From contig CM119371.1 of assembly GCA_051294905.1 (NCBI GenBank), positions 39,000,001-39,064,000 of the forward strand: a stretch of 64,000 nt of DNA. Direction: 5' to 3'. The position numbers and the translations under genes were made by a program. The notes beneath the pieces are model-generated. The model made no database searches. It had not been told where the DNA came from and saw nothing but the letters and a program-made list of their open reading frames with translations. This document shows positions 3,988 through 44,483 of this stretch, piece after piece; positions within the stretch are counted from its first letter, which is position 1, and each line of letters begins with the position of its first letter. Source of the DNA: Botryllus schlosseri. Lineage: Eukaryota.

Positions 3988-4082
3988 GTTGCGGATTTTT
4001 TAGCGATTCCTGCCCGCCCGGAATGTACTGTGACCACGCGCTTTATTGCTCGAGCGGCCCCGGCTACAAGTGCATGCACTGA
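3988..4082 (+). CDS. Probable Cys-rich terminal exon of an upstream gene
   Basis: Pyrimidine-rich acceptor tttccag|, then a GC-rich island reading CGFFSDSCPPGMYCDHALYCSSGPGYKCMH* in phase 1 (5 Cys). Upstream exons were not identified. Confidence 0.5.
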
Positions 4083-7179: not shown

Positions 7180-8413
7180 CTAATAACTAATCGCACAGTG
7201 CGTGAAAATACTGTCAGTTGAATATTTTGTCGAAAATGACGATGTGGCTTGCTGGTAGCACGTAGGATATATATATTTTAGCGGTTTTGGAGTTAATCGC
7301 TTCTATTTCCCGACGTGGGCTTCGCTCAAACGTACCTGACTATTTGCTAAATCAAAAACCGATGGGACTGGCTGCACGCCATTAAAACTTAGCACTTCTT
7401 CTTGAGACAAACAATTTGTCCGTAAGCTCCAATCACTTCGTTTGCGGTCAATATGTTTTTGATAGGACAATGGACAATTGAGTCATTGCTCTCTCTCATA
7501 GGTAACAACAGCGTGTCGCTAACAATCCGAATTTAAGAAATGTCCGCCATTTTCATCGACACCGTTACTTGATGACTTGAAATTGACCGGTAAATTTTGC
7601 TCCGAGTCAATCCATATTTCTGAAACGGCGAGTCAAGTCAGGTCGAGTCAAGTCGCTCGAAAAAAGTGACGCGAGTCATCCTAACACTGGTATCAGTACA
7701 AACTAACATCGGTGTATGGATAGTGCGGCGCTATTATGACATTTAAGATCGCAATGTAATTAGGAAAACTTCAGCACAAATTGAACTCATTTCGAGTTCA
7801 TAAACGTCATTTTTCTCATGGGAGTTCTCTCCCTCCGTCATATGCTGCCTTCCCCCTTCCAGTTTGAGAACCACTGATTATAGTATATAAGTAAGTGTAT
7901 TTATACGAGTGGTCACATACTTTTAGCTGATCGACGGGGGTATTTTCCAAATTGCAACATGCGACATGAATATCGAAACTATTAAATGAGGGCACACGAT
8001 CTTCCAGAATATATTCAGTCACTCGGATCTTGCGACAATCTAACTATCTTCAAGGTCATGCAAAGTTATCAAAAACTTATTTTCCACTAATTAAATTGTT
8101 AAATTTAAAAAGTAAGTTGTAGTAAAAATACTCAATTAGAAATACCCTAAACATAACCACGTGATTAAATACTGCATATACAGGCACAACCTTCCGGAGT
8201 ACTTTGAAAACGGATCGCGCCACTTTTGCTCAAATCTTATCTGGGCAGATGTCGAATAACTAGTAGTTGAGTATGGTCGTAATGTGATCACGGTATTGCT
8301 TCCAAGTGCGGAAATATTTGGAGATCAATTGGTGGAAATGGCGAGGCCAAAACTGGGAATACGTTGACATTTCTGTAAACAATGTGGTAGCGAGGGAGAA
8401 ACTGGGAGAAGTC

Positions 8414-8465
8414 ATGAAAATTGCACTTTTGTACGCTGCGCTGATGATGTTTGCGTATTTGGAAG
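8414..8465 (+). CDS. Putative first coding exon (signal peptide) of the CCP-MAM-EGF gene
   Basis: ATG at 8414 gives [17 protein letters not shown] (basic residue then hydrophobic core). It ends G|gtcagt in phase 1, matching the phase-1 acceptor at 11351. Confidence 0.65.
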
Positions 8466-11400
8466 GTCAGTAACGAAGAAAAATCTTCAGAGCAAATTAT
8501 AACCTACTTTGGGACGACCAAGAAAATCAAACACAGTTATAGTAGCTTAATATATCGCGTCTTGGTGAAAATACCATATACCTCTATCAGTAATCAGGGC
8601 GTTTTTTTTTTGACATGTCAAAATTTGTCAAGATTTTGTCAAAATTGTAGCGTTAGGTCAAAATTTGTCAAAATTTTTCATGAAGTCAAAAAATTTTTGA
8701 CGTCTGCATTTTGTTTGTATCGTAGATTTTGCACTGTTGGTGAACTTATAATTTGATATTTTACCGCTGTTAGCCTATTTTATAGGCCTACCGTTGTAAA
8801 CGGCTAATCGTCTGCTCATTGTGAATCATAAACGGTCAAATAAAACGGTCAAATAAAACAAATATTAGGTAGACATGGTGTTATGGTCAACGTACCGCAA
8901 TATCCTAACTGAAGAGAGACTTCTTGTGCATTGCATCATTCTTATATTAAGAAGCGCATGATGAAAATTTGTGATGTAGACAACATTGTCAGAGTGAAGC
9001 AGCACGGTGTGTCACCAGCACCAGCAGTGTACGCACAACTTGAGTGTTGTCAGCCAACAACTGCGGCTGTTGAACGTCCTTGGCAAGCTTCTTAGTAAGG
9101 ACGTGCACTTTCTACCCAAGGATGTAGGAAAGTATCTCTCGTTGTACTACAAAATATTTTAATTATTTCTACCATAATACATATTGTAACCACTGAAATT
9201 CTTCATAGGGCCAGACTTCGTTAAAATATTGTTTATTTCATGAAAAAAGTTGCCTGTTTCTAAGCCATAAACGCTTTTTCAGGCCAAACTACTTCGTTAG
9301 GACAGTCACATCCAACCAGAAATGAAGATAAGTGGTACAATTTTAACAGTATGTGGGAAAACACCTAATTTGCATACGTTATGTCAAAATTTGGTCAAAA
9401 TTCATTTTTTTAGGTAAAAAAAAGTAAAAATTTGGATTTTTTAGGTCAAAATTATTTTTTTTAGGTAAAAAAAAACCGCCCTAGTAATCAGTAATGCGGA
9501 TTTTGCGATGTTTTCGATATTTGGAATTGAATTCGGATTCTGTTTGTCTCTGATCCACTTCGGGTATTTTCGGATTTCGTTTCAGACTTTGGCATGAATA
9601 AATGGATGATTTTTATAAATTGTGATTTTTCCGCCCCTCCATGATATTTTCATAGTATCGATATCAGTAATCATCGCAGTAATGGTAGACATATGGATTA
9701 GAGTCTTTAGGCATTATACCTGCCCTACTGTGCTGCTGTCGTCTGAAATGATCAGATCGAAATAAGCTTTTGTCAGAATGAACCGTGTCGTAGTTCATTT
9801 CAGTTCAAATATCTTTATTCGCGTTCGGTTCAGTTTATGAACAATTTCATCATTTCGAAATACTAAAAGATTGGTATACAATGAAAACATAGAAAGTCGA
9901 ATGGAATTTGAGTAGTCTTTTTATCCAACAACCTAAAAGTATTGAAAATGTGCGTAGTAAAAGTACAAATATTGCATCAACTTTAAAAAAAATTCTTCAA
10001 AATATTTCACAATGATGTATTGGTAAGTTATAGCGTTACTATGATTGTTTCATTTATTTGCTGGTGCGATAGCCCAACTGCTGAATAAAGCAACCAAACT
10101 AATAAAATGCTTAGCACATCATTAAATCAGGTTAACAAAGTGTGAAGAAGGCAAGTTTTACATAGTAACGGATTGAGCAATTTGGTGAAGCGAAATGGAA
10201 ACATTAATTATGATGCTGTCAGCAATTGATATCCCAAAGGTAAACCAAAACTAGAAACAGCAAATCCATGAACAGTTCAATTCAGTTTATTATTAATTCC
10301 ATCATTTTAACACATCAAAAGATTGCTATACAATAATACGAGAGGAAGAAGTCCTTTCGGACTATATAGGCTAGTTTTCGATCAAAATCCGGCGTCAGTC
10401 TAGAGTACTAGAGCATGTAAATATGAGACATGCATACCGAATCGAATGTAATATAAGATAACCATGAAGAATAAGCGCAGACTAGTGTACAGTTAGGTGT
10501 TAATCAAGATATACCTTTGCAGTCAGCAATGCACGGAGATGCCGAAAAATACAAAGACGCGTTGAAGAAGGAAGAAAATGCCGAAGGCCGTGTGTGGTTG
10601 ATGGCGATTGCAAAGCTCCGAACAAGACATGTAATTGCGACGGACAATGCGGGAAGAGCTGCTACAATCCGAGTATGTAGGCTAATCACCCCACAGCTTT
10701 AGACATCAGGAATCAGTTGCGATCGAAGGAAGCCATTGCCTGTACTCAACCAGAAGTAGAAAATGAGTCCTAAATTCACTACTCAAATACAAGTGGAAGT
10801 AGCGATTTCGAAGTAGAAAATAAAGGTATGTAAGATATTTAAGAGAGTAGTTTAAAACCGTACATTTGGTGGAGGGCCTGCATGATTATAGCGGGTATTC
10901 TGAGGTCAGTACTAAAAATAGCAAGATATATCTTTAGGACTGACACGATACTGATACGATATCAAATAGTACAATTTTCGAAAATATTTCCAGATACCGC
11001 AATATGTCATTGTTATGGTAATTGTGTTGTGACGCTCCGATTGTTCTGAACAAAGCAGATTTCAGATAATGAGGGCGATTTGAGGTGTGATTCCAGTGTT
11101 CCGGCCTGAATTTAATTTAGATTTTCGAAATCAGTGCGATGGTAGCTTGCAATCGAGAGCAGTTTCAATAAATACTGCGATGTGGACGCCAGCTATAAGA
11201 TTGTCAGAAATAGTAAATTCGCTGCCGCGAAACGATTACGAATGCAGTCTGACTGAACCGTAGCGAAGCAAAAAATCGACAGTTGCCATTGCATGTTTAC
11301 AATCGATATGAAAATCATCATTTTCAACATGTTGGTGATATCATTGACAGATGCTCTTTGCGATGAGCTGGAACCGATCCCAAACGGTAGCATGGATCTC

Positions 11401-14400
11401 AATGCGATCACGATGCAGAGCACGGTGTCGTACACTTGTGACGGCGGATTTGTCATGAGAGGCGACAGCGTTCGGACGTGCCGCGCTGATAAGAAATGGT
11501 ATCCGAAATCTCCCGTCTGTAGACGTAAGTATACAGACAAGGTGGGCACCTAGGACTTTCAGATCAACCTGTAAACATGTGATTCTCAACCTTGTTCTAG
11601 TGCAGACATCTACATATATTTGTGTGGGTTTGAATAGAAAAAAGGGTTATTACTTCCGCTCAGGCCTATAATCATGTCATATTGCCATGGTGTTGTTGTG
11701 GCCTGAAATGCTACCGATTGATTAAAAAAAGGCCATCTCTTTCGGTAAAATAAGGACGTAAGTGAAAAATATGGAGAGATGTTGTAAAGGATAATTTAAG
11801 TTTATAATTGTAAAGATTTAACGTTGACATTGGATGGACACCTACAATTAGTCCACAGACCCCAAGGCTTCCATGGATGAACATCGGGTTGAAAAAAAAA
11901 ATTGTATTACCTGTGTAGGCGGGTATAAGGTTTGTTTGCTTTCACTTATTGTGTAAGTGATTACATTTTTAAACAACTCAAATTCTACTTGTAACATTAA
12001 GCTTGTCTTGGATTCCGTAATGAGCAAAGTAGTTTTGGGATAACTTCGCGTCACTTTTACGTCATTACTTGTCATAAGAACAGCGTGAAGCAGCCATCAT
12101 AGTTGTTGCTTAATATAGCTTGATGATTGCACCTAATCTCAGGGTCATTAGCCCGTCTTCGTTAGTCCCGAAGGTGCATTTTGCCATCTCGAAAGTAGCT
12201 ACCGCCGAGTTACTTCCCAATAAATACGAATCCTCGGCGAACTATGCTTTTCGAAATGCTTACCTTGAAGTAATTTTGATACGTTTTCGTATTCTACTTC
12301 TGCTTGCAAGTAGTTTCGTAAAAATCTTTATAATCGCTATTATACATACCTGCACAATTTTTATAAGCCATTCTTTTGGTCTGCTCAAAGCTCGAACCAT
12401 ACCTCAATGACTACGTTATCTAATCTGTCAATTGGCGATCATATCAAAACCAATTTGTCACTGCATTTCAGGTGGATGTAAAAGACCACCTCATATCGGA
12501 AACTCTTACCCGTTATTGAACGGTACTATTTACGATGTTGGCAACGAGGTCACATACCGATGCCTCACAGGTTTTGTATTTTGCATCTACCAGCATTTAA
12601 CGAAGCGCTCGGATACAGCGGTACAAATTATTTCAGCATCAGACCATAGCGCTCTATGTTGTGTGGACACAGCGAGACTGAATGGCTCACTGCATTTGGG
12701 TTACGTCATACTTTCCATTTGACCAAAGGCAACTTCACGGCCATTTTTGACCGGCTTGCCGAGCGAAAAATTCGATAACATGGGTATCACTGTAAAGCTG
12801 CTGCGCTACTGATTGCGAATATATAAATTTTAGTCCGCTCATGGTCCTGGAACCCCCCAAAATCAGCCTCGAAATTTGCATTGTGATCGACTTTTGGCAA
12901 TGTGACGCAACAGTACTGTCTGGCTCCTTCTTCTCCGCTTCACTCTCGTTTTGCCGGACAGAATTGTCGCATCACGATGCCAAAACTCGATCACAATGAA
13001 AATTTGAAGGCTGATTTTGGGGGGTTCTAGGACCATGAGCGAGATCAAATTTATATTTTCGAAATCAGTACAGCAGTTGCTTTCCATTGATACCCGTTTT
13101 ATCGAATTTTGCGCTCGGCAAGCCGGTCAAAAATGGCCGTAAAGTTACGTTTGGTCAAATGGAAAGTATGACGTAACCCAAATGCAGTGAGCCGTTCAGT
13201 CTCGCTGTGTCCACGGCATATAGGACACTATGATCAGACCGTAGCTTACTAACCTAAGGATCCATGCCTAACACGTGACTGCACGGTTGTCCAGCCCGAT
13301 TTTTCTAGCAATTTCCAGTAGCTTCGTAAACAGACGAGGTCACATTGTCATAGCTTGCGATTTATTGAAACCGGTAATGGACTAAAGCAATTGTTGCACT
13401 GAATTAGAAAATTGATATTACGATATAGTCATGGCACTGCAACCACCCCAAAGACGCATTTAGAATACGGATATTTTCATTGTTTTGAACAACCTCGTGC
13501 CGTAATACAATGAACGAAACAATAACCTATTACGGCGTTACAATTGTTCGCGACGATTATGACGCAAATGAACTCTGAATTGACATGAACTGAAATTGAT
13601 TTTGGTTGTATTTCTTTTTGAATTCAATTTCGAAATTTTTTCGCATTCAGTATTTCTTACTCTTATCTAATTTGGAAAAGTAGAATATTTAATAGTTCTC
13701 CAACTCTTCCGTGCTGCTCATCTTAGGCTAGATATCTATATTATTCATACTTGAATGTGTTTCTAGGCTACTACACCTACGACGAAGGTCCGATGATAGT
13801 CTCGTGTCTCGAGTCGGGGCAGTGGTCAGTGGGAAGATTCAGCTGCGAGTTACAAATGTGCGACCCCATTCCGGAAATAATCGGCGGAAGAGTGACTTAC
13901 ACGTCACAATACTACTTCGGATCCATCGCGACCCTTGTCTGCATCGACGGTAATCAGCAGTTTTCCTATTCTGTTTTAAGTGAAGACCGTGAAGACCAAC
14001 CTCTTTGCTATTCACGGCCGTATTTCGATTATCTATGTAGCTTGCGACCGCATACCAGGACATAGTCGCAATGAACTAACTGGACACCAAATACACATGT
14101 TAAACTCTCCATTAGGGATGTTCAAAAATAACTTTTTTTCAAATTCCACTGGCTACTTGATAAAATTTTTAGTTTATCTAAAAAATATTGTGGACAACAA
14201 ATTTGGTTCAATTACACCCGTAGCCGCATTGCTACAAGAGAAGAAAGTTTTCGATTTGTTGTATGGAAAAATTCAAAAATAATTTTGAAAGTTTTTTCAA
14301 TTTTTCGAAATTGTAAAATTATCCAAGCAACTCAAACGAATAACTATTGGTACTAAAAGTAGGTAAAATCTTGAAATATATATTGGGGCTATACAGGGGC

Positions 14401-17400
14401 TATTTCACGTGATTTCACGAAGACTTATCTAATAAAACTGAAGCAATCTTTGCGCAGATAACAATCGACTTCACAAATTCAAATTCCAAGTGTAAAAATG
14501 TAACAGTTTGATTATAAAGTTGTAGAAGTGGAAGTATAGTCTAAAGATAAATCCAGCTAAGAGGTGCAAGTAGGCAACACTTAATAGACTACTACTAAAG
14601 CAGATCTAGGCTAATTCGTTACCGACCAGCTTCGCCTATGACCACGGACCAACATCGAGGGGTGGTATATTTCTACACTCTGTGGGTGTAAAATCACAAA
14701 AAGGTATACAGTACCAACATAAATAACAAATTCGTCTTCCCTTAAAGCGTTTAGAGCAGTGGTTCCCAAACGGGGGGAAATTCCCCACTGGTGGGAAATT
14801 CAATGATTTCTAGTGGGGAATAGACGCATTTGTTCAAAATTATATACACGACAGTCTACACATTCACGGAGACACATGCGCAATTGCCATTACCAGTTAA
14901 CTGCTTAGGAATGTATGTATCGAAAATTATTTTGCGTGTTGTTCACAAAACCTCATTTTTAACTCTGGATGACCAATCATGGCGTCACAAACGCATCCAG
15001 CACGACTAGTGTCACGTGAAATAACGCTTCAGCGAAATTTTGAGCGTTACTGGTATCGGTTCCAAATACGGTACGTTTTATGTTGCAGTTAAAGGCGATT
15101 GTCTCGCGTACTGGTGTGGTACCAGCAGCTAGCTGGTCTCTGATGACAGAAGTGCTGGGTAGTGGGGCACAGGACCGTAACTGTCACACCCCAAGCCCCC
15201 CATTAGAGGGAACGGCGGGTTCGAAGAGGCCCAAAAATATTTTGTGAAATAATAACATAAATGGAAGCATTTATTTTTTTAATTTATGCAACTTTATCAG
15301 AATATTTTCGCGCTGGTGGCGCGATTTAATATCGCCACATATCTGATTATTCGGTACCCTTCCCCCACGAAAATACGTAGAATTTATAGAAATGGAGACT
15401 TCGACGTCGGCCATTACTGCACCACGACGCACCAAGGCCATGTAACATGCAACTCCAGAAGTGTGCCAGAACGATCAGCAGCGAGAAAACCTTGGCCGAT
15501 AAGGAATGACCTTGTGGTGACCGTAAACATACAATATACATACATAGATGTTAAATCGTCCATAGGCGGCTAAATGGCTGGCGCCGAATGTTCCTGTCTT
15601 GGCGATCAGAACCCCACAGGGCAAATGCCATCCCGCAGGGAATATTATTTGCCGATCAAGCAATACCAATTTGAAATCGTGTGTGCCTTTTAGTTTGGGA
15701 GATTTCCATATCTTTTGACAGAGCAGATATATGAGGTCACGAAATAGCATAATGTAATGAAGTTAATATACCAACGGGTCCGCCTGAAAATGTTTAGTTC
15801 TTATTTAGGGGTCCTACCTTTTCCAACACACCTCACTCAGCTCTACCGGTAAATCTGATTAGGTGAGCAGAGAGGGAATAAAAATTGATAACAACATCCT
15901 ATGCAAGTCCCGATCATATTTACCTATTCAAACACGAACTATATAAATTTTTCGAGCTTCGCTCGTTTAGTCCAAATAAGGTGACGCACTAAACAGTATA
16001 CCCAATGTAGCTGATAAGTAGTGGGATAAAAGCGTACAGGCTCAACGGGACTGAGGGGGTTAGGTTTAGGATATCAGTTAATTAGTTTTATCACACTGGG
16101 GGGGGGGACCAAGATCAACGTTTCTGGGCGGGGTAGACGAAGTGCTGTTGCGGTCCGGATGGGAAATGAAGGCTCGGAATAAGTCTGAAGTGGGGAATGA
16201 AGACAAAAAGGTTGGGAACCACTGGTGTAGAGACAGGCGATTGTACAGACGCTACTGAAAAAGGCCATATTGAACGAGAAATGTGGCTTTCAACGGCAAG
16301 GTTGACTAAAAAAGGTCAATTTCAACCGATTATACGTGGGGAGGTTTCATTCCGGAGCCGAGGCGGAAGAATCACCGTTTTTAATTTTTAGTCAATCCAT
16401 CAATAATAGTGGTAAAGGTCATTGACACTAGCGGAATTATTAATGACACTACAAATTTAGTTGCAATTATCGACATTTACCAATTTCGTGACTATTAGAA
16501 TGAAGTCTAATTTGATATGAACTGACCTCGATTTATGTCGTATATAATTCTAATTCTCATTTAATTCCGTCTCCAAGTTGCAGCAAATTGAGTAATTAAT
16601 ATTTTAATCTAAACCAGAATAGCTGGATAATTTTGAGCTGTCCAAGTCTGTTCGTTACTGTCCTAGTATGATACGATGACACAATGCTACGGTATGTTCA
16701 GGTTACGAACCAATGGGCGGGGTACTGAAGAGATACTGTGAGGCTGGCCGTCAGGACGATTCCTCTGCAGAATGGTCTGAGCCATCATTAGCAAAATGCA
16801 CAAGTAACGCTATCGATATACTGTATGTCGATTTCCCTTAAAGATACCCATACAGGAAAACGTTGCCCGCCGCCACGCAAGCCGGAGAATGGATTCGTGA
16901 ATTATGAGTGGAGCACTGCGGATGTGTTCGGCACCGAAATACGTTATAGCTGTATCGATGGCTACCGATTGGAAGGGGTTGAATCGGGTCGTTGTAACGA
17001 GGATAGCACGTGGGGTGTGGTTCCCGAATGTGTCGGTAAGATTAATAATATGCGGTAAGTAACAGGGTTGGAAGCAAGTCACTCGGTTCTGTGTCACATG
17101 TAAATTTGACTTTTTACAGTTTGACTCGAGTCAAGTCCGAGTCCGCATCACTGAGCAATAGGGCTGTTCAAAAATAACCTTTTCTCCTGAATCTTGTTGG
17201 CTACGTGATTAAATTGTTAGGTTGCCTTGAAAAACGACGCACTCCAAATTTGAATTCATTCCAACCAATATTCGTGGGTTACGTAGAGTTTGAAAATATT
17301 GAAGTTGCCTAAAAACGCAAAAAAAAATGTTTTTCAAATTTTTCTGCCAACCCCATGAAATTGTTGGGCTGTCTTCAAAAACTATGCAAAACAAATTTGA

Positions 17401-20400: not shown

Positions 20401-23400
20401 ATTTAAACATGTTTGTTTTAAATCGATTTTTGTTTTAAATGCAACCCTAATTATACGTGTAAAGTTAAGCGACTGAATGTCATATGTCACTCTTCGTTAA
20501 TTGCTAAGCAATAATTTGCTGTCATTTCCAGAAATCACATGCGAGACGCCCCCCACTTCTCTTCCATTCACCAGCAATGGGACGGTTGGCAACACAGAAT
20601 CAGGATCGTTTCGTCTTGCATCAACCGTCACTTACAAATGTATCGATCAGTACACATTATCTGGCCACGAATCCTCAACATCTTTTACGTCTACTTGCAA
20701 ACGCGTATCGGCCATGGAAAGTGTTTGGTTCCCGTCGTTTGCAAATGTTCGGTGTGAAGGTAAGCGAATCACGTCAGGTTGAAGATTATTCAAGAACAAT
20801 ACAACGCGGTAAATTTTGAACGATGGTATATAATTTAAATCATGATGTTTCCTTTCCGCTGTTACAGCCGATGTGAATTGTACATTTAAGCGCAGCTATT
20901 GCAGTTACACCAACAGTGGATGGAGATATCGTTATTCCAGTGAGTTCTCTTCCTGTGTACATACATTTGTAGGCACTGCGCGAAGTACGCGGAATTTACT
21001 TCAGCTTTATCCTCTTGTATGGATCTGACGTTCGAACAAAGTTGCTGTGCTTTGTCGAGATTCAATAGAAATCTGGTATAGTTGCTGACGACTAGGCTAC
21101 ACGTGACGAGTGACGAAAATATTCTGGTTTATTTCAATATGAATATATTATTTTATTGTATGAATGAATTCAATATTCTACAGACAACTGGATATATACG
21201 GCACGATACAATGCTATCCTCACTTCTCCATGGATATATCGCGAATATGCGATTCGCGGATACATTTGCGTTGTGTTCGAATATTATCTTGAAGATCATT
21301 CCTCCACTTTGTTGTTACAAAAGATGTCGTGAGTACCTTTGTAAAATGATCATGAATTTTGACGTTTCTCTCTGGTCCGTGGACAATGACCATGCGACAT
21401 AATAGCATGCTACACTTGAGAATTTGGGTAAAATTCGGGGTTAGGGTCGGGTTTGTATCTAGATTGATGATTGGGTTAGGGTTAGATTTGGGCTTGGGAT
21501 ATATATGAAGATTGAATTCTGGGTTGGGGTGGGGGTTAGGGTACGTTTTAAAGCTGTGAAACCACATACTAAAGTGCCAAATGCTGATCTGTCGTTTTTC
21601 ATTGTGTTGCATGCTCATTAGGGTTGTTCAGATTTGAAAAATTGTCAGGAAACTTTGATGCTTATGATCCAAATGATGGTTTATTACATAAAAACACTTT
21701 TATGAGCAATTTTGAAATAGCCCTTCGTCAGCCCCTCCAAGCGTTGGTCTTGCCCTCCTTCATAGGATGAGAAACCAAACTTATGGGGCCTTGGCCCCCA
21801 GACCCCATTGGAATGAACGTCTCCTCCGCTACTTGTGAATGAGATTTCTGACACCGAGTATTCCATGGGTTTCTCTGGCCCATTTATGACCCATTCACCA
21901 TAATTCCTGATTGAATCTGTCAATATATTGCGGTAATTGCAATATATATTGTTATAAATATTCTGTCCTCTCTACAAGCCCGCATAATCGGATTTACCGG
22001 TAGAGCTGAGTGAGATGTTGTCTTGGAAAATTTAGGGCACGTAATTAATTATTACTTTGTTACAGTTGCTGTTTCGTGACCGCCTGTCTGCTATGTCAAG
22101 CGATATTGAACTGACCCAAACGTACCAAACACACGATTCCATATTGATATTTCTACACTCTCAAATAATTTTCCCTCTGCAGTGGCATTTGTCCTGTTGA
22201 GTTCAGATTACTAAGACAGGAAGATACGGCAACAGTTATGTAGGCGCCTGTAAACAATTAGATATATATTTATATATATCGAAGTTTTCGGTCAACATAA
22301 GGGCTGTCCTTGTCGGCCGAGGTTTTCCCGCTGCCAAACTCTCCCATACTGGCCTAAACCTTATATATGTGGCTCGCTAATGGCCGACGCCGGAATGTAT
22401 ATTTCTATAAGTCATGCGCATTTGTTATTGGGGAAGGGTTTTTAATAATCAATAGATTTACCAACATGATATCGCCGGTACCGCGAAAACAAATGAAAAA
22501 AGATTCGTGAATGGTCGAAAAATACTTCACAATTAATGGGCATTCAGGAAAACACTTTGGTCCCTCTTCAAGCCCGCCCCCTCCTCCCCCCAATTGTGGG
22601 ATTTTGGTGCGGTATATGCGGTCCTGTATATAGTACATATCATTGAATGTATTCTGAATGATGTACCATCATCGAAAGAATCCTTGATCTGTCTACAATA
22701 GCGGAGGGCAATGTCAGGCACATGCGTGAATGTTTTACATGTCACGTCAAATTATATTACCAGCAAGTTATGAATATGTCATTCCCCTTCAAGAGAAACC
22801 ACTTTAAGAGATGAAACTTCAGATATGGGGTGTGGTGAAATTGGTGACTCTCTCATGTCTCAAAAGAGAAACACCATGTTTTATATTTCGCGCTGTTGAC
22901 AGGCCCATCTGTTTTGAGATGTGTCAGAGCTCAGGGGCTTGAAATTCTCGCTACGATAGGCCTACTTTGCAATGGCGTGCCATGTCAAACCTCAAATGGG
23001 GCTTCGGCGTCAGCGCAAGGATGAATGATATAAAGGGTCAGGTTATTCGACTTCTTGTGTTACTGATAGGTCCCAGTCAAAGCAAACAGTCTGGACTTCT
23101 CACCCGGAGGAGAAGCGACGTGTTTGGCTCACATCGTTTGCGAAATTTTCAATCGAGCAAAATCTTCAATATCAATTCCAATCCACAGCATCACGTTTAA
23201 ATTTCATTGAATTGAGAAAAACAGACTGCGGTGAGAACATAATTACAAGAAAAGGTGTTTATTGCACTAAATGAAATAATGCTGCATCTGTTTAGAGTAC
23301 TCGTGTATGTCGACACCATGCACGAATGGAGGTACTTGCGTCAACCGCTTGAAGTCATACACTTGCTTTTGTCCAACGGGCTATTCAGGAGAGCAATGTC

Positions 23401-26400: not shown

Positions 26401-29400
26401 AAATATTTGGGCTTAGGCTATTTCAATGCGAATACATTTTTATATTGTATAAGTGAATTCATTTTTACAGATAACTGGATATATACTGCACGATACATCG
26501 CTATCCTTACTTCGCCACGGATAAATCGTGATTATGCGATTAGCGGATACATTTGTGTTGTGTTCGAATATTATCTTTATGATGATCGTTCCTCCATTTT
26601 ATTGATGAAAAAGATGTCGTAAGTACATTTATAGAACGATCAATAATAATGAGGATTTTTATCCCCTAGAACCCACATATTACTTATCTTTAAATGTATT
26701 CTGAATGAGATGACATCATCAAAATCATCCTTTATTTATCGACGACAGAAGTGGGCAGCCACAGGCAGATCTGCCAATTGTGGCATGCGACAATATTTTA
26801 AGTGCCACGCCAAATTATATTACCAGCAGGTTATAAGTATGTCATTATTTTCTGAAGAATCCACTTCGACTAATGAAATTTCAGATATGTGGTGTCGGTT
26901 TTGAACAATCCACAATCTCAATCGTGTAACGCTTGACTGGTTTCAGACCATTATTTATCAACTTTCTCCTCAATTTAACCCAGGGGTGGGCAGACTATGG
27001 CCCGCGGGCCGCATGCGGCCTGCAACACCACTTGTGCGGCCCGTGAAAACCTGAAGAAAAGCTGTAAAAATATTGATAAAATGCGTACTAAAAATCAAAT
27101 TACTGTGGATTAAACTGTTTCTCAATATATTTAAACATGATATTCGTGGCATAGTATTTCCTATATTTTGTTGATGTCGTGATAGCCCAACCTCGTGGCC
27201 CATGTATTTGTCATGGTTTCAATTGCTAAACATCACAAAAAGTGAAACGTAAATGACTTAATTTGGACCACGACTGTGATTTTAGATTAGCAACACAAGC
27301 AAGTATAGTACTTTAGTCATGTAATTGGAAAAACCGATTCGCGAGTTTGTGAGATAGAATCGTTCTTTGTATGTGCAGAAGTAGGCCTATTTATATTTTT
27401 AATATTTAAATATTGTAGGTGCGTATTTAAAGGTAACGTGGTTATGATGCTGTCAGCAGTGTGTGTCCTGGAGTTGAACCAAAAGTACAATCAGCAAATC
27501 TATGAACGAATTGCTGCTCACATACTCAAATTTACATCCAGTTCCAAGAATCGGGACAACCGACTTTCATCACTAATTTTGACAATGAGAACGACCGGCT
27601 TATAAATTCTCGTCAATGTTTCTGACACGTGTACGTTTTCATCAAATCAATGTTTGGTTTGTTTTAAGTATGCAAATAGTCAAATATATATATATAATTT
27701 CCATGTTGTCGGTCTCTATATTATCAAATAACAATATGGAATTTTGGCTCAGTATCCCAATTTTATATAGTGAGACCCGCGAATGGATTCAAATGTTGAA
27801 TGCAGCCCGCGAGCTAAACAGTTTGCTCACCCCTGATCTAACCTCTATGCCTACATTGTACGTCTTCAAATACCACTAGGAAATATTGACCATGAGACGA
27901 TAAGCCACTTAGGAATCCAAATATCCAGTCTAAACTGCAGTCCAACATGTAGTTACACAATCCTGAAATTTTATATTTATCTTTACCAATATTCGAACGT
28001 AAAACCATAAAGCTTTGACCGGGACAGTAGCATGATCAACAGCCTACCTATCAGGTGCATACCGGAAACCAAGATTATGCGACACTACTCAAATATTGTG
28101 ATATCAGATCCATCTCAATTTTTTGGCGCGCCCAACTTGCAGTGGCGTACCATGTCATACTCCAAATAAACAGGCTTCAGCATTAGACATGGGATGAATG
28201 AGATAAACCGTCAGATTATATAGCCGACTTCCTGTATTACTTATAGGTCCCAGTCACAGCAGACCGTCTGGACTTCTCGTCCTAAGGAGAAACGACGTGC
28301 TTGGCTCACATCGCTTGCGAAATTTCCAATCGAACAAAACCTTCGATATCAATTCCAATCCACGGCATCACGGTTAAATTTCGTTGAATTGAGAAAAACA
28401 GATTGCGGTGAGAATATATCCACAAGAGAGGGTGTTTATTGCAATAAAAATGATGTTGCATCTGTTAAGAGGACTTGTGCATGTCGATTCCATGTATGAA
28501 TGGAGGTACTTGCGTCAATCGCTTGAAGTCATACACTTGCTTTTGTCCAACGGGCTTTTCAGGAGAGCAATGTCAACAAGGTATGTACGAAGGATCGTTG
28601 TCTTACATTCTCAGAATATTGAGACATTGCCATCTACTGCCAGTAGCTATATTTGTCAGAATATTAATTTACAATCCTAAATATTGATATCGGTAACTCC
28701 TAGACATATGTAGGCAATCTTCCTATACTGCCGTACTGTGAAATGTAATAGACTTTAAATGACACTAATTCTCCGCATTTCACAAGGTTGTATCAGTAGC
28801 GGAGAATAAGAGGATTCAAGTAAAATCCACCTCAGCACTTTACTAAATCACCATAAATATAAAATATTTTGCACAGCGGTAGTTCTAGCTAAGAAATTGA
28901 TGCTTGGGGAGATCACATATTGAATTCGTGGATACTGGTCTGTAAAACCTGTATCTGTACTCAGAATAAATTTATTCCCATCTATTTTGCTATGTATCTC
29001 AGCATTCGTATCTTGGAATCCTTCTCCGCAAGGACACTTAGTACAGCAACAATACCAGGCAAATATGAAGTGTCTCAAAATCTTCAATGTATGAGAATAT
29101 AAAACAAACCAATTTTAATGAAATCTCACCCCCTCCCCCTCCAAAGTTCGTAAAATCCGTCTGGTGGGTTCATCCTAAGTTAGGAGCAACTGCTTTATTG
29201 CCAGAGGCCATAAAATTGATGTCCAATTTGTCCATGCATGGTAATGATGAAAGTTCACCAGGTAGATTCTGTGCATCGATTTTTATTTTGGGTCGTCATG
29301 TTTTCTTTCAGCCGACGTGAATTGCACCTTTACGAGAAGCTTTTGCGGTTTTACCAACGATGGATGGAGATTTTATCATCGAGGTCAGTTCCCTTGCTGT

Positions 29401-32400
29401 ATACATTGCAGTTTGAAAAGCTTCTTGAAGGTACAGAACTTCAATACACAATTGAACAGTATATTCATATTGAAAATAACCCGAATATTTTCGGGTGACA
29501 CTCGTCAGGGTTAATCGTCAGCAACTAGTAGAGAATTGGAAAATACATTGTATCAGTGTTGGGATCAAGTCACTACCTTCGAGTCACGAGTCATTTCGTG
29601 TCATTGCACATTTTGACTCGAGTCAAGTCAAGTCAATCGATTTTCGAAGGTGACTCGAGTCAAGTCAAGTCACTCGATTTTTGGAGGTGACTCGAGTCAA
29701 GTCGAGTCAAGTCAAGTCAAGTCACGAGTCAAGTCACAATTCAAGTCAAGTTGCCTTTTCGAAGTATGAGGCATGGATTGCGTCATTGCATTATGTTATC
29801 TGTCTGAAATACAGTTGAGTGTTCATTGATTTTGAACCGATGAAAGAATATAGAGTTAAATATATACACGCAAGAAGTCGCTGTATCGCTAAAATACGTA
29901 AGCATAGCCTTAGTTTGTAGTTACCAGCTAAAATAGAGAACAGAGAAACGAATTGATAAGATGCAATACATTACATTACCCATTTACATATTGATATGAT
30001 ACAAATCGAGCCTGCGACAATGGTTGAGGACTCAATAAACTACATTCGAATTCAATTTCAATAAAACAGGAGGTTTGGTTAAGGTAAGAATAGAAAACAG
30101 AAATAGACATTTTGCTGTAAGCTTCGATCACTTCGTTTGCGGTCAATTTATTTGTGAAAGAACAATGGAGGCTCAATAAAACGCACGATCATTGAATGAT
30201 TGATCGCATTCACGGGTTAAACCAGCGTTTCGCGAATAATACGAACATATGCAAGTTACTGTGATTTTTATCGACCACGATTACTTGATGACTTGAAATT
30301 GACTCGTGAATTTTGCTCCGAGTCACGAGTCAATCCGCATTTCTGATACGCCGAGTCAAGTCAAGTCAAGTCATTTTAGCAAAGTGACTCGATTCAAGTC
30401 AAGTCATACGAAAAAGGTGACTCGAGTCTGACTCGAGTCAAGTCATGACTCGAGTCATCCCAACACTGCATTGTATATCAACAATCGTATCACAAAATAT
30501 GACGTCACCAGCATGAAATTTCTCGCTCAATGTACTATTTTAGGTGGTACACGAACTCCTTTTGTTGACATAGTTTTGGTTGGTGTATTTTGATAAAAGT
30601 CGACTCCAAGGCACACAAATGGAATTGTTATTCTCTACTAGTTGCTGACGATTACCCCTGACGAGTGTCAGCCAAAAATATACAGGTTCATTTCAATATG
30701 AATGTACTGTTTAATTGTACATTGCAGTTTGTAGACATTTCAGAAGGTTCATTGAATTCACTTCATCGTTATCATTTTACCATGGCCTTGAACTCCGAAC
30801 AATGCTGTGTTTGGTCCGTGCGTTACATACATAGGATGGTTCACTATTTTTCAGAAAATTGGATATATGCAGCACAATACGAATCCACCCTGACTTCGCC
30901 ACCGATTAATCTCGATTATGCAATCACCGGACTCATATGCGTCGTATTCAAATACTACATTTATCTCTATCCCCATGACTCTACTCTGACGGTACAACAG
31001 CTGTAAGTATAGGCATAGCCTACTTGTGATATAGTACAGATAGATCACAACCGTCATGGGACATAAACAAATCTATATTCAAAGCGATCAACCCACAAAA
31101 GATCAAGGAACCGAAGCATCGGTATGTAATATATTTTTTTGATACTGATAGGTCTCAGTCCCGACCAGCATGGGAGTCTCATCCGCATGAAAAGCGAGGT
31201 GATTGGCTCACGTCTTTCGTGAACTTTAGAATTGAACAAAATCTTCAATTTCAAGTCAAATCTACGAGAGGAGTATTATTGAAATTCCTGGAAGTAAGAA
31301 GAACGGATTGCAGTAGGCATATATTTTTTCTCAACCGACGTCGTCCACAAAGTACGAACTAATAATCGTCCACTCTTTTAGAGAACTGGTGCGTTTCGGA
31401 GCCATGCATAAACGGAGGTACTTGTGTCAATCGTTTGAATTCATATACCTGCTTCTGTCCCCGGGGATTCTATGGAGAGCACTGTCAATACGGTGTGTAC
31501 GCATTTTCATGTAGTCTCTGGGCGATATTGTTAATTACAAGTTTCTGAGAAATCGACATTGGGTTGTAATGTGAATTCTTCATCATTGGTCCATCAAACA
31601 TGAACACTAGGCCTACCAGCAGTAACTCTGACCGGTGCTTGTAGAGACATTGAACATTCATGTTTGTACCAAAATGAACAGGACAAATTACTGGATCAAT
31701 TGATTTTTTTGGAAGTGTGGGACAGTCCTAGGAATTTCATCTTTTTATTTGTGATTGCTCAAATAGCTAACGTAGGGAGTTGGCGTAGTTGGTTATATAC
31801 GTCACTGACATCAGCGCGAGAACACAGCGGCTGGAAGGTCGGCTGCTGACTTGTTCCCAATCCCGCATTAAGAGGCCGTTTATCTGTTCATTGCGTCAAT
31901 TTTTGTCTTTTGTGTCGCATGGTACATTGTGTCTCTTGAGTGGATGATAGTCAAAGGACCGCTGATTGTGATTATCAATTTGTAAGCCGTCATCCGTTCT
32001 TAATTTTTCTCAATCTGTTCCCGGTATCAACTCCGACTTACTGACTGTATAGTAGGGCTGTTCAAAAATAACCTTTTTTCCTGAATCTTGTTGGTTACTT
32101 GATCAAATTGTTAGGTTGCCCTAAACAACGACGCACACCAAATTTCAATTCATTCCAACTAATATTCGCGGGTTTCGTAGAGTTTAAAAATTTTGAATTT
32201 GCCTGAAAACGCAAAAAAAAATTTTTCAAATTTTCCTGCCAACCTCGTGAAATTGTTGGGCTGTCTTCAAAAACTATGCAAACAAATTTGACTCAATTCC
32301 AAGCCGTAGAAGCGGAGTTATTCCAGTTTTTCGATGATAATTCTGGGATTATCCATCGATCTGATTTGTTACAAAAGCTTACTCGAAATATCCAGCTTTC

Positions 32401-38400: not shown

Positions 38401-41271
38401 CACAAAAGTCCTTCTCTGATTGTATCTTTTGATGCGACTCAACTCGAGTATTTTTTTATTTTATCACCCATTGTTTGTGTCGGAGTTCGAGTAATTCTAC
38501 AGGTCGCGCCCAAGTCCAAATCACAATTTTCAGTACGAATCATCAACGGGTCCTGTTTAACCATTATAAACAATGCCACGTAATAGGTAATCTTCCACTG
38601 AGTCGCAACTTTTGAACGCGATGTAATAGTGAGGTTTAATGAGTAGTTTTAGAGCGAATTGTAAGTTCTTAAATTTTAAAAAAATGGTAGGTAAAAATTG
38701 TCGAATACTTCGAAATCCCAAATGTCGTCGCGGGCCGCATGCGGCCCGCGTGTTTGAGACCTCAGCTCTAATGGGTAATTCGGGGTTTGATCGAAAGTGA
38801 CCTTTTTTTAATCAACCTCACAAAATGTAAGTAAAAAGTGGTATACCTGGAATCGAACGAAAGTGATGACCTTTTTTTAGTCAACTCACCGGATTTTACA
38901 GCAAAAATTGCGAAATCGGCTGTTTCCAGTCTTCATCAACTAACTTTTCTGATTTGGTAAAAGTGTCCTCCTTTCGCGATTCCAAAATATGGTAACTCTA
39001 TTCTAACAGCGTCCACGATCATGAAGCTGTGACTACTATCCAATCAGGTGTGATAAAACAATGCAATCACCATTCACCAAGCCCGTCATAATAATAATCC
39101 ATTAGCATAGATAACTAACCTACGTAGGGTAGGTTAGTTATCTATAGTTACAGTCACCCATAAATCTACCAATTTATTATGAATCAATCATCCGGAAACA
39201 TCTGTCACGTGTATGCAGGGCCGTAACTACCGTCCCCCAAACCCCCCCAATGAGGGGGGGCGAGCTCGAAATGGGCCCCAAATTTTTTGGTGAATTAGCA
39301 TAAATTATAGAGTATTTCAAGTTGCCAAATGTTACAATTATTGGGTACTCTTCCCCAAGGAAAAATACACAAGATTTATATAAATGGGCATATCGGCGTT
39401 GGCCATTACCGCGCCACGACGCACCAAGACATATACAGTTTTAGGCCATGTAACACGTGACTCCAAGAAGTGTGCCAGAACGATCGGCAGCGAGAAACCT
39501 TGGCCGAAAAGGAGTGCCCTTATGGTGACGGAAAACTTCGTTGTATATACGATATACAGATAGGTTTATTTGTCCATAGGCGCCTAAATCACTGGGGCCG
39601 AATGTTCCTGTCTTGGTAATCTGAACCTCACAAGACAAGTACCATCCCGCAGGGAAAAATTAGATGCCAGTGAAGAAATACCAATTTGAAATCGTGTTAT
39701 CTATTAGTTTAGTACGTTTGGGCGATCCTATATTTTTGATATAGCAGACAGCAGGCCACGAAATAACATCATGTAACGAAGTCATACCAACGAGTCCGCC
39801 CGTCAGAAGATGTTTAATTATTATTTACGGGCTCTACAGTTTCAAAGACACCTCGCTCAGCTCTACCGGTAAATCTGATTACGTGAGTAGAGAGGACAAG
39901 AAATTGATAGCAATATACATGCAATTCCCGATCTTATTAACCGATTTTATCATGAATTATCAAAAATTTTCGCGCTTCGCGCTATCTAACTGAACAGTAC
40001 AACTGTAATTTCGTGGCAAAGGCGAACAACGTGATTGGGAGGGGGTCGGTTTAGCACCCTGTGGGAGCCCAAGACTCAAGTTTTCTGGGGGCCTGACGAA
40101 GTGCTGTTTCGTTTCTGACAACGGGTATACACCCGAGATGTTCAATTATTATTGAGGGGTCCTACCTTTTCAAGCACACCTTACTTAGCTCTACCGGTAA
40201 ATCAGATTACGGAAGCAGAGAGAGGATAAAAATTGATAGCAATATATAAGCAATACCGATCATATTGACCGATTCAGTCATGAATTACAGAAATTTCTCG
40301 CGCTTCGCGCGATTAAGCAGACAAAACTGACTCGCTAAACGGACACCCAATCTATAAACAGCGTCATATTGACCGATTAAGTCATGAATTGTACAAATTT
40401 TTCGTGCTTCGCGCGATTAGGCTAGCAAAGCAGACTCACTAAACGGACAGCCAATGAATAAACAGCGTATATCCAATGTAGAGAGCGAATAGTCGGAGAG
40501 GGTCTGGGGGGCGAAGCCCCCCCGAAGTCCGGTTTACCACCCTATGGGGGGCCCTAAACCAACGTTTTTTGGGGGGGGGCTGACGAAGTGCTGTTACGGC
40601 CCTGCGTGTATGTATTTGTATATTATACTAATGCGGGCGGATCGACAAATTACCTGGTCCGACTCTGAACCTGTTTTTCAATTCTCTGATCCGATTTCGA
40701 TCCGACTCCTGTGCCAGATTATTGAAATGACGGTGATCCGATCCTAAAAACTCCGATAATAATCCTCTTCGAGTATCTGTTTCTGGTGAGCTACAAAAAC
40801 AGTAGCTCACACGGTACGGGTTGCAGGATATATTGCAACAAAAGAAACATGACATTAAAACTAGCAGGTTTGTGTTTGTATTGAATAATAAAACTAATAC
40901 ACTAAGCAGGTGCGGTTGGTGGTTATTGCTGTCATGTTCATCAATAAAAATTTTGACCGTATTATCGAAAGTACTGATCCGACTCCGGCCGTATCAGAAA
41001 AATGCTGCCCCGGTCCGAACCTTCTCCAGTCAAAAATGAGAAAATCCGGCCGTATATCTAATCCGGCTCCGACTATGCCCCGCTCTAGTCTATACCAGTA
41101 GAAAATATCGGGAAATTCATACGCACGAACTAATAATATTCGAATATTTTAGATGACTTTTGCATGACGGAACCTTGTATGAATGGAGGTACCTGCGTCA
41201 AAAACGGGAAGTCCTATAGCTGCAGCTGTTCCTGGTCATCTTCGGGAGCGCTATGTCAATACGGTTTTTAG
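8414..41271 (+). CDS. Secreted mosaic protein, CCP(sushi)x5-MAM-EGF-CCP-MAM-EGF-MAM-EGF-EGF, 21 coding exons, about 947 aa
   Basis: Exons with GT-AG ends and compatible phases: 8414-8465 (signal peptide [17 protein letters not shown]); 11351-11524 (CCP1); 12472-12570, 13767-13949 and 16702-16803 (CCP2-3, split across exons); 16856-17035 (CCP4); 20532-20759 (CCP5); 20868-20939, 21184-21328, 23070-23230 (MAM1); 23296-23406 (EGF1); 23910-24137 (CCP6); 24246-24323, 26471-26618, 28247-28407 (MAM2); 28470-28580 (EGF2); 29312-29383, 30855-31002, 31152-31312 (MAM3); 31382-31492 (EGF3); 41153-41271 (EGF4 plus TAG). The lengths sum to 2844 nt with no internal stop. Domain calls rest on the CCP pattern C..P..NG...Y.C..GY...C...W...C, the MAM pattern NCTF...C....W...LTSP...CVVF.YY...W...C, and six-Cys EGF spacing. 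Confidence 0.85.
8595..9483 (+). mobile_element. Same hAT derivative, copy 2 (intron 1 of the CCP-MAM-EGF gene)
   Basis: Aligns with 6325-7179 in reverse orientation. Ends in cgcccta; gtaatcag occurs at both flanks. Confidence 0.75.
12645..13232. mobile_element. Foldback MITE with CATAG termini and 7-bp TSD (P-element-like)
   Basis: Almost the whole 588 bp is one inverted repeat. Termini are catag and ctatg, flanked on both sides by atcagac. Confidence 0.75.
14757..16224. mobile_element. hAT/Charlie-type MITE with a nested element at about 15170-16157
   Basis: TIR cagtggttcccaa / ttgggaaccactg; TSD gtttagag/gtgtagag. The internal segment starting caggaccgtaac is homologous to 39216-40604. 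Confidence 0.7.
18486..19481. mobile_element. hAT-type MITE with GTTCAC subterminal motifs
   Basis: Ends tagggttggtgtgaac and gttcgcaccagccgta; perfect TSD caaaatag. A partial second copy lies at about 32370-33064. Confidence 0.8.
20050..20449. mobile_element. MITE with TTTAAAAC motifs
   Basis: Ends in aaatgcaacccta, is homologous to the sequence starting tagggttggatttaaaac near 2322, and is absent from the paralogous intron 23407-23909. Confidence 0.55.
21424..21541 (+). repeat. Degenerate TTAGGG-like tract
   Basis: gggttagggtcggg...gggttagggttagatttggg. A similar short tract lies at about 49835-49895. Confidence 0.5.
24493..26360. mobile_element. Degenerate Charlie-type MITE hosting the solo LTR
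   Basis: Ends resemble (ca)gtggttcttaacc and ggttgggagtcactg, with gagccgc subterminal motifs. It is absent from the paralogous intron. Confidence 0.5.
24594..25293 (-). mobile_element. Solo LTR (700 bp)
   Basis: TGT...ACA termini, 4-bp direct repeat aata on both sides and strong C/A strand skew. It is absent from the paralogous intron 20940-21183. Orientation is inferred from an AT-rich patch followed by GT-rich sequence on the minus strand. Confidence 0.65.
26981..27835. mobile_element. hAT/Charlie-type MITE
   Basis: TIR caggggtgggca / tgctcacccctg; GGCCCGC subterminal motifs; TSD atttaacc/atctaacc. Confidence 0.75.
29554..30468. mobile_element. hAT-type MITE with GACTCGAGTCAAGTC subterminal arrays
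   Basis: TIR cagtgttgggat / atcccaacactg; perfect TSD cattgtat. Partial copies lie at about 7420-7689 and 49033-49142. Confidence 0.85.
33445..35055. mobile_element. hAT-type MITE with (GTAATT)n subterminal microsatellites
   Basis: TIR cagagttggatcaatt / aattgatccaactctg; perfect TSD gttaccat. It contains an internal inverted repeat at about 33800-33910 and 34230-34345. Confidence 0.85.
35080..36427. mobile_element. hAT/Charlie-type MITE
   Basis: Ends caggggtttttaacc and ggttgagaaccgctg; perfect TSD ctttagga. Confidence 0.8.
35780..36318. mobile_element. hAT/Charlie-type MITE nested in 35080-36427
   Basis: Ends caggggtgggca and tgcccacctctg; perfect TSD tattagat. Confidence 0.8.
36586..38765. 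mobile_element. hAT/Charlie-type MITE with a nested TIR element
   Basis: Ends cagaggcctcaaac and gtttgagacctcag; GCGGGCC motifs; TSD ctttagtg/ctctaatg (2 mismatches). Confidence 0.6.
37020..37985. mobile_element. TIR element, possibly Tc1/pogo-type
   Basis: Inverted repeat gggagatgtggtaccgatggatca / tgatccatcggtaccacatctccc. Exact ends and TSD are uncertain. Confidence 0.6.
39216..40604. mobile_element. hAT-type non-autonomous element
   Basis: TIR cagggccgtaac / gttacggccctg; perfect TSD cgtgtatg; internal direct duplications. Relatives lie at about 15170-16157, 21900-22400 (reverse) and 43974-44200. Confidence 0.85.
41153..41271 (+). CDS. EGF exon, probable last coding exon of the CCP-MAM-EGF gene
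   Basis: Acceptor ttttag| is followed by [39 protein letters not shown]. The flanking sequence resembles the flanks of the EGF3 exon at 31382-31492. Confidence 0.7.
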
Positions 41272-44200: not shown

Positions 44201-44483
44201 CCTAGATGTATGTGCCAAATGATATAGGTCTGTTCCAACTTTTAACTGTTTGACCTGTTTTCATCTTATTTGCGACGTGAGACGCGACAAGATATTTTAG
44301 CATGCTTCTATACTGCATCAATGTGGCTGACTGGAACCCCAAGGATCCTATTGCTGCACCTTGTATTATATTTTGACTGCAATTGTATTCCATAGAACTG
44401 TCTGTACGGGTATGTTATCGATGGCTGCTTAGCACTTCAGTACAATCTACAGTCCGAGACACGCGATCACATATGATGTACAT

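Follow-up and report, generated by a model that had tools for sequence, protein, structure and literature searches.

Secreted proteins that combine an N-terminal WAP domain with an array of CCP (Sushi) domains have been described as receptor-clustering scaffolds: LEV-9 has a WAP domain and eight CCPs, and Hasp a WAP domain and up to 17 (PMC9083331). For ascidians, C3, Bf and an opsonic complement are on record, with CCP proteins as proposed, still putative regulators (PMC5465252). Here we describe a predicted gene at positions 8414 to 41271 (+ strand) of a 64,000-nucleotide stretch from Botryllus schlosseri (GenBank assembly GCA_051294905.1, contig CM119371.1, positions 39,000,001 to 39,064,000); this whole stretch is called the window, and positions are counted from its first letter. 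Like LEV-9 of C. elegans and Hasp of Drosophila, the product is predicted to be secreted and to begin with a WAP-like module and a CCP array, whereas the LEV-9 and Hasp bodies as described are CCP-only (8-17) and that of the window protein holds six CCPs, three MAM-like domains and four EGF domains. We consider it highly probable that this mosaic gene is real and functional and, jointly with this, that its protein is a member of a tunicate expansion for which we use the term tunicate WAP-CCP-headed mosaic proteins, a grouping made here and not a published family. More tentatively, and at somewhat under an even chance, analogy with its relatives suggests a non-catalytic extracellular adaptor, opsonin or regulator of haemolymph innate immunity.

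The gene model has 22 exons running from an ATG at 8414 to a TAG at 41271, with GT-AG boundaries at every intron and a predicted coding sequence of 2994 nucleotides (997 residues, one stop). An earlier note, made from the sequence alone, had proposed a single in-frame spliced gene over this interval, and this stands. Its count of 21 exons had overlooked 10523-10672, an exon with phase-1 introns on both sides and eight cysteines that is easy to miss because skipping it preserves the frame; the N-terminus proposed there, a signal peptide followed by CCPs, is corrected by this WAP-like exon, which lies between the signal exon and CCP1. The order in the full model is signal-WAP-CCPx5-MAM-EGF-CCP-MAM-EGF-MAM-EGF-EGF. 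In the domain string of the note, the CCP and EGF domains are confirmed by Pfam, the WAP-like module was omitted, and the MAM domains find moderate support. The note had also read the protein as secreted and free of a transmembrane segment, in agreement with the predicted protein, whose Kyte-Doolittle maximum over 19-residue windows is 1.53 and lies at the N-terminus; the signal peptide is called from hydropathy only. Intron phase is 1 at all domain boundaries, and phase 2 occurs only at the second intron within each MAM-like unit. The exons and the evidence for each are as follows:

8414..8465, +: exon 1, ATG and predicted signal peptide (residues 1-17); N-terminal hydrophobic peak
10523..10672, +: exon 2, WAP-like module of LEV-9/Hasp type with eight cysteines, C-x-C-D-x-x-C-G-x-S-C; Pfam WAP E 0.0027, relatives, alignment
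11351..11524, +: exon 3, CCP1 with family motif CRADKKW and RGDS at 11458-11469; Pfam Sushi E 2e-13
12472..12570, +: exon 4, first half of CCP2; gene model, relatives
13767..13949, +: exon 5, second half of CCP2 and first half of CCP3; Pfam Sushi E 4e-5
16702..16803, +: exon 6, second half of CCP3; gene model, relatives
16856..17035, +: exon 7, CCP4; Pfam Sushi E 9e-10, contigs X1 records 5 and 6, X24 record 12
20532..20759, +: exon 8, long CCP5, start of repeat unit 1; Pfam Sushi E 3e-4, joined to exon 7 in X24 record 12
20868..20939, +: exon 9, MAM-like 1a; model, MAM profile comparison
21184..21328, +: exon 10, MAM-like 1b with LTSP motif; model, MAM profile comparison
23070..23230, +: exon 11, MAM-like 1c; X1 record 7, MAM profile comparison
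23296..23406, +: exon 12, EGF1; Pfam EGF E 3e-10, 111 unplaced letters in X1 record 7
23910..24137, +: exon 13, long CCP6, start of repeat unit 2; Pfam Sushi E 9e-6, X1 record 7
24246..24323, +: exon 14, MAM-like 2a; model, MAM profile comparison
26471..26618, +: exon 15, MAM-like 2b; model, MAM profile comparison
28247..28407, +: exon 16, MAM-like 2c; model, MAM profile comparison
28470..28580, +: exon 17, EGF2; Pfam EGF E 2e-10
29312..29383, +: exon 18, MAM-like 3a, opening a third unit with no preceding CCP; model, MAM profile, substitution ratios
30855..31002, +: exon 19, MAM-like 3b; model, MAM profile comparison
31152..31312, +: exon 20, MAM-like 3c; model, MAM profile comparison
31382..31492, +: exon 21, EGF3; Pfam EGF E 5e-11
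41153..41271, +: exon 22, EGF4 and predicted stop, beyond a 9660-bp intron; Pfam EGF E 4e-5

The Pfam scan covered the 21 single exons downstream of exon 1. It placed Sushi above cut-off in five of the seven CCP-bearing exons, found nothing in the two half-CCP exons of 32-33 residues, and placed EGF above cut-off in all four EGF exons, each of them under the EGF_CA cut-off. Searches of the window by tblastn with VWA-bearing relatives found no further WAP, CCP, VWA or protease exons.

The most informative part of the protein is the WAP-like module, as it ties the gene to the tunicate expansion, to factor B-like models and to LEV-9/Hasp. Its Pfam WAP (PF00095) score of 18.4 bits lies below the cut-off of 20.8. 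Classical WAPs show a CC pair at a position where the window module, aligned with SLPI, has C-x-C, and the eight-cysteine form C-x-C-D-x-x-C-G-x-[ST]-C stands directly before a CCP, as do the modules of the relatives. The predicted structure of exon 2 (predicted local distance difference test, pLDDT, 75) gave no fold match above Z 2.5, and SLPI and nawaprin appeared at Z 2.1-2.3 among six tied weak rows; a PDB sequence search with this exon recovered SLPI only at E 0.5. Protease inhibition by the module is possible and, because the model resembles SLPI and nawaprin only at that level, unsupported.

With the WAP exon as query, a full HMMER scan (E up to 0.001), which is biased to close relatives and so does not give the range of the family, returned 27 proteins, 17 with Sushi domains, eight short WAP-only pieces and two with neither. 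Database records were consulted for 20 of the 27, among them every Sushi-bearing one. In all 17 Sushi-bearing relatives a CCP follows immediately behind the WAP pattern, and 14 of them are tunicate: seven from Clavelina, three from Styela and two from Phallusia by species name, and two more from Phallusia by accession series. The other three are a Hypsibius protein named 'Protein lev-9' (OQV22151.1), which has the same WAP cysteine pattern as the window, KAJ8038235.1, which we take from its accession series to be a sea cucumber protein, and a Logan protein. The window and 14 of the 17 have a CCP1 motif in common, C[RQ]x[DN][KR][KTWQ]W, which also occurs in the non-tunicate-looking P0125. Behind this shared head the payloads vary: trypsin-like domains in ten, VWA in six, C-type lectin in two, MAM in two and VWD-C8-TIL in one. 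Some of these proteins carry database names such as 'complement factor B-like', 'CiBf-3', 'C3/C5 convertase' or 'complement receptor type 2-like'. The close accession numbers of at least seven Clavelina WAP-CCP models (XP_0768214xx-XP_0768219xx), together with the equal length of the contigs they are assigned to, suggest a tandem cluster. Three factor B-like proteins of Clavelina and Phallusia (P0123, P0126 and P0147) carry WAP-like modules ahead of CCPs at their N-termini, two of them (P0123 and P0126) as WAP-CCP-WAP-CCP3-VWA-protease, a WAP-before-CCP pattern otherwise known from LEV-9/Hasp. Ascidian factor B-like models (Phallusia 'CiBf-3' CAB3230286.1 and CAB3226759.1; Clavelina XP_076821430.1 and XP_076821631.1) share the WAP cysteine pattern before their CCPs; unlike the window protein they have a serine protease domain and, in most cases, VWA. 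Membership of factor B/C2 itself is rejected, the window having neither VWA nor a trypsin-like protease domain.

The nearest layout belongs to CAB3266729.1 (P0127; 1611 residues, automatically named 'SVEP1-like'), presumably from Phallusia mammillata by accession series, whose long CCP is near-identical to that of a named Phallusia protein (P0143). Like the window protein without its CCP5, it reads signal-WAP-CCPx4-MAM, then EGF and a long CCP; unlike the window protein, it has one MAM and continues with more CCPs, TSP1 and EGFs. CAB3266727.1/28.1 (P0140/P0170) share WAP-CCP4-MAM and differ in a single MAM followed by a Ser/Thr stalk. These three are uncharacterised gene models, from which the window protein differs in the extra long CCP before its first MAM-like domain and in its three degenerate MAM-EGF units. 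Over about 310 residues the window head is co-linear with P0137 (37% identity; a WAP-CCP4 sequence that ends there), P0140 (34%) and P0127 (32%), and the first 630 residues without CCP5 match residues 1-560 of P0127 in 164 of 518 columns (32%) with 38 of 38 cysteines aligned. The Clavelina 'complement receptor type 2-like' model XP_076821854.1 (P0145) has a similar WAP-CCPx5 head (33% over about 390 residues); its payload of FN2-like, TSP1, C-type lectin, EGF and CCP lacks MAM, unlike that of the window. By sequence comparison, then, the WAP-CCP1-4 head and the MAM-EGF-long-CCP segment are kin to other tunicate proteins. On a core layout common to another ascidian lineage, the distinctive features of the window protein are one additional long CCP and a MAM-EGF pair present three times.

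The earlier note had called the architecture unfamiliar and lineage-specific. The exact domain string is indeed new, and a word-index protein search with a CCP5/6 profile supports its lineage-specificity: of 114 candidates a single one proved a relative, and that was an exon in unspliced genomic sequence. The core is shared with the Phallusia models above. The same kind of search with the WAP exon gave no candidate, and a metagenome scan with CCP5/6 gave 69 pattern matches, none confirmed. The comparison drawn there with nephronectin, EGFL6 and zonadhesin gives way to the tunicate expansion, factor B-like models and LEV-9/Hasp, to which the WAP-CCP head points. Nephronectin and EGFL6 have calcium-binding EGFs, then one C-terminal MAM, and no WAP or CCP. 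As secreted MAM and EGF proteins with an RGD they resemble the window protein, whose EGFs, unlike theirs, fall under the EGF_CA cut-off; membership is rejected on architecture, given the WAP, the CCPs and three MAM-like domains. Regulators of complement activation (RCA; C4BP, factor H, CR1) are CCP-only arrays, and membership is rejected here because the window protein is not. The second short consensus repeat of C4BP alpha is split over two exons (PMC2118859), as is CCP2 of the window (12570/13767), a comparison limited to the fact of the split; CCP3 of the window is split too, unlike in C4BP alpha, which counts against the likeness.

To place the head we used a tree of WAP and CCP1 (26 rows) and one of 13 chosen WAP-CCP heads that omits near-duplicates and any match whose WAP is followed by fewer than three CCPs. 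P0145 has the highest identity to the window in both. In the second tree only three factor B-like heads are starred. Approximately unbiased (AU) tests reject neither a clade of the window with LEV-9, represented by Hypsibius lev-9 (p-AU 0.15 and 0.28), nor one with the factor B heads (p-AU 0.37). On these alignments the trees cannot separate the affinities of the window head, and orthology is supported in no direction. They bear on the proposal that the protein is a derived LEV-9/Hasp, an extracellular scaffold clustering acetylcholine receptors or organizing synaptic clefts in which MAM-EGF units replaced the distal CCPs. Neither AU value rejects the joint clade, the Hypsibius protein aligns with the window head at 29% over about 340 residues, and both known scaffolds are secreted WAP and CCP proteins (PMC9083331). 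Yet tunicate proteins outscore lev-9 against the window head, and the WAP and CCP1 tree places Hypsibius and KAJ together in a starred non-tunicate group (96/89) that does not include the window. The same source describes LEV-9 and Hasp as holding WAP and CCP only and the LEV-9 WAP as dispensable for clustering (PMC9083331), and agrin is reported as receptor clusterer in Ciona. We regard a synaptic scaffold as unlikely. Were it true, LEV-9/Hasp biology would extend to chordates.

The three MAM-like domains of the window are short (126-129 residues), and none of the nine single MAM exons matches Pfam MAM (PF00629). A profile hidden Markov model (HMM) built on MAM domains taken from three relatives, of which two are nearly the same, scores the spliced domains at 15.6, 14.2 and 12.4 bits, against 9.6 for the best of 900 shuffles and three reversals, and hhalign of window domains against relatives' MAMs gives a probability of 78% (P 1.8e-5). 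The alignment with P0127 and P0140/P0170 runs through C-x-F, C, W and LTSP. In P0127 the corresponding domain passes Pfam MAM (E 1.4e-8, 35.2 bits against a cut-off of 26.4) and is predicted as a beta-sandwich (pLDDT 77) whose best match is the neuropilin-1 MAM (E 1e-5), followed by enteropeptidase and RPTPmu. PDB sequence searches with the window MAM exon profiles returned chance matches only, and an Atlas search with a MAM exon returned no usable match. We conclude, with moderate support from these comparisons, that the window domains are likely degenerate MAM-like domains.

The C-terminal half grew by tandem duplication of a long-CCP/MAM/EGF cassette. CCP6 is 80% identical to CCP5, and between repeat units 1 and 2, each a long CCP-MAM-EGF, the synonymous divergence (dS) is 0.30 with a nonsynonymous to synonymous ratio (dN/dS) of 0.32, compared with dS of 0.95 and 1.09 and dN/dS of 0.30 and 0.26 for the third MAM-EGF against units 1 and 2; across single domains dN/dS is 0.13-0.40. 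These ratios speak for a functional gene. Because units 1 and 2 agree in their short introns as well (84-86%), the unit was duplicated as DNA, an easy event since every domain boundary is a phase-1 intron. No CCP remnant was found before the third MAM-like domain, nor MAM exon remnants in intron 21.

Evidence of expression comes from mapping four of 24 listed runs at 88% likeness to 8400-28399, which covers 20 of the gene's 33 kb and 15 introns; that the runs behind the two contigs below are RNA is a guess, and none of the 24 is on record as such. In one probable RNA contig (X24 record 12), 16856-17034 continues straight into 20531-20759, the CCP4-CCP5 join, which links the head with the repeats. 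In another (X1 record 7), 23070-23229 and 23909-24061 are separated by 111 letters, the length of the EGF1 exon, joining MAM-like 1c to CCP6. Junction mapping, which the earlier note had proposed as a check, gave a mixed result: the two contigs bridge three of the 15 introns and tie the head to the repeats, and for the remaining 12, including the 5' junctions, no junction occurs among the rows listed. The joint table likewise holds no model intron among the 15 rows listed, out of 221 more, and the joints listed apparently derive from repeats; X24 also contains unspliced pieces. An alternative CCP4 acceptor at 16844 is rejected because X1 record 5 carries 11 unplaced letters ahead of 16856. Overall the gene is probably weakly expressed, with a predicted secreted product of roughly 110 kDa.

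Because the last six exons lie outside the mapped range, the stop at 41271 and the lack of a membrane anchor are predictions. This leaves room for a model with wrong ends, in which the main product would be membrane- or glycosylphosphatidylinositol-anchored, or the locus would yield two transcripts. A candidate donor at 41263 within the EGF4 exon, in-frame hydrophobic stretches from 31873 and 44984 (+), and the short hydrophobic tail given by read-through of the EGF3 donor (31493-31545, +) would fit it. Local non-coding DNA, however, yields comparable stretches at a rate of 0.2-0.7 per kb, and the candidate transmembrane exons were rejected as no better than chance; the stretch at 44984 sits inside an element resembling a miniature inverted-repeat transposable element (MITE). 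With CCP4 joined to CCP5 in a contig and no second signal exon seen, we give wrong ends a slight chance.

Contigs X1 records 5 and 6 represent two versions of the CCP4 exon (16856-17034), differing from the window at 13 of 179 and one of 158 letters, and may be divergent alleles or a paralogue. Their co-occurrence in one run would suit a polymorphic protein of self/non-self or gamete recognition, as would a variable Ciona CCP receptor proposed as an individuality marker (PMC5465252). The versions may be paralogues or ordinary ascidian heterozygosity, and a repeat dN/dS of about 0.3 speaks against such a role. Fester/FcoR-type receptors, moreover, are membrane proteins. A recognition role therefore seems very unlikely to us.

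Several observations weigh against the favoured reading of the gene, its family and its function. First, the contig depths are only 5.5 and 9.5, mismatches between contig pieces and window range from 6 in 153 letters to 23 in 229 (about 4-13 per 100), and the two raw-read runs reach a depth of about 0-1.5 in bins without repeats. Second, no starred set holds the window in either tree, branches are long, and the AU test rejects, by a narrow margin, a clade of the window with the P0127, P0140 and P0137 heads (p-AU 0.047), so that having the MAM layout in common need not indicate orthology. Third, the usual C-terminal DDI motif is replaced in the window MAMs, and single-exon profile comparisons are weak (probabilities of 22% and 0.5%). 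Finally, the complement names of the relatives are automatic, and some long models from Clavelina and Styela may run adjacent genes together.

We infer every step from architecture to function. With no enzyme domain and no predicted anchor, the protein must act by binding. Its WAP-CCP4 head would dock on a partner also engaged by other family members, most likely in the haemolymph complement or innate system, for example deposited C3 or an activation surface, while the three MAM-like domains, putative beta-sandwiches held on EGF/CCP spacers, could make multivalent contact with cells, tunic, microbial surfaces or copies of itself. We tentatively favour such a haemolymph adaptor because its kin include factor B-like proteases and lectin/TSP1 'CR2-like' models and ascidian complement is opsonic; on sequence grounds these relatives would tilt the functions proposed in the earlier note (immunity, gamete or self recognition, or matrix) towards immunity. 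In the available part of a Botrylloides study, Sushi/EGF genes are blood-cell markers, and the window layout is not reported there (PMC12212465). Against an immune role, CCP modules are common in non-immune proteins, and the WAP-CCP head also marks LEV-9/Hasp (PMC9083331).

The same modules could instead serve a structural matrix or adhesion protein of the tunic, mucus net or basement membrane, its MAM-EGF units cross-linking or oligomerizing and its CCP head acting as a spacer or in cell binding. Three MAM-like units in a predicted secreted protein without an enzyme would suit this, as would relatives with a Ser/Thr stalk (P0140/P0170) or VWD-C8-TIL (P0146) and the EGFL6 clusters found at 0.80 in an Atlas search with P0127 19-540, a lead only. 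The RGDS in CCP1 might add to this. Its RGD, however, uses a conserved CCP glycine and recurs at that place in none of 25 relative segments, so that on alignment it is possibly chance. A protease domain in ten of the 17 CCP-bearing relatives argues the other way, and the low RNA depth in the four mapped runs, whose tissues are unspecified, would be unusual for a bulk structural protein. We judge a matrix role rather unlikely.

A more specific form of the haemolymph adaptor can be imagined, though we think it decidedly unlikely: that tunicates made the LEV-9/Hasp-type WAP-CCP head a portable docking cassette, placed on factor B-like proteases, lectins, VWD and MAM proteins in an expanded gene family that is partly clustered, and that the window protein binds ascidian C3b through its head and ties complement to surfaces through its MAMs. 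If so, it would be a complement regulator or opsonin unlike vertebrate ones, and a structural link would join synaptic receptor-clustering scaffolds to the alternative complement pathway; C3b binding would show the rise of regulators in the sister group of vertebrates. As a protease-less member with a factor B-like head, the protein is a concrete candidate for C3b binding. The single gene otherwise matters little, because ascidian genomes are rich in shuffled extracellular mosaics and a relative shares its core layout. Of broader interest is the family that it exposes, a WAP-CCP head on factor B-like proteases and on lectin-type, mucin-type and LEV-9/Hasp-like proteins. A literature search that reached few subscription papers found no description of WAP-CCP head combinations or of a WAP-sushi-MAM ascidian layout. 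The title of Ji 2000, on ascidian factor B, reportedly announces a 'unique combination of domains', and the head may have been described before, with its domains named differently, in this work or in Yoshizaki 2005.

Elsewhere, the window is about 40% GC and contains many MITE-like repeats. Convergent with the mosaic gene is an intronless open reading frame at 48966-46747 (-) for a DDX43-like KH-KH-DEAD helicase of about 729 residues from the first Met, whose best named match is Styela clava DDX43 (65%), behind two Logan proteins at 92% and 70%; this match points to a host of stolidobranch ascidian type. Upstream, 2829-2889 and 3988-4082 (+) form a possible two-exon gene for a predicted secreted cysteine-rich peptide of 51 residues without a Pfam match, its first exon resembling a signal peptide and its second supplying six cysteines and the stop. 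A fragment at 55907-55533 (-) resembles transmembrane segments TM5-TM6 of a rhodopsin-family G protein-coupled receptor (Pfam 7tm_1 E 0.008, below cut-off). Three related decayed hAT-type copies lie at 6317-7147, 8638-9491 and 60234-60972, one of them in intron 1 of the mosaic gene. Fold-back or MITE-like elements with inverted ends occupy 12639-13238, 33789-34352, 57826-58432 and about 44481-45248, and a 36/75-bp tandem repeat array at 54647-55533 has an inverted partial copy at 59560-59740.

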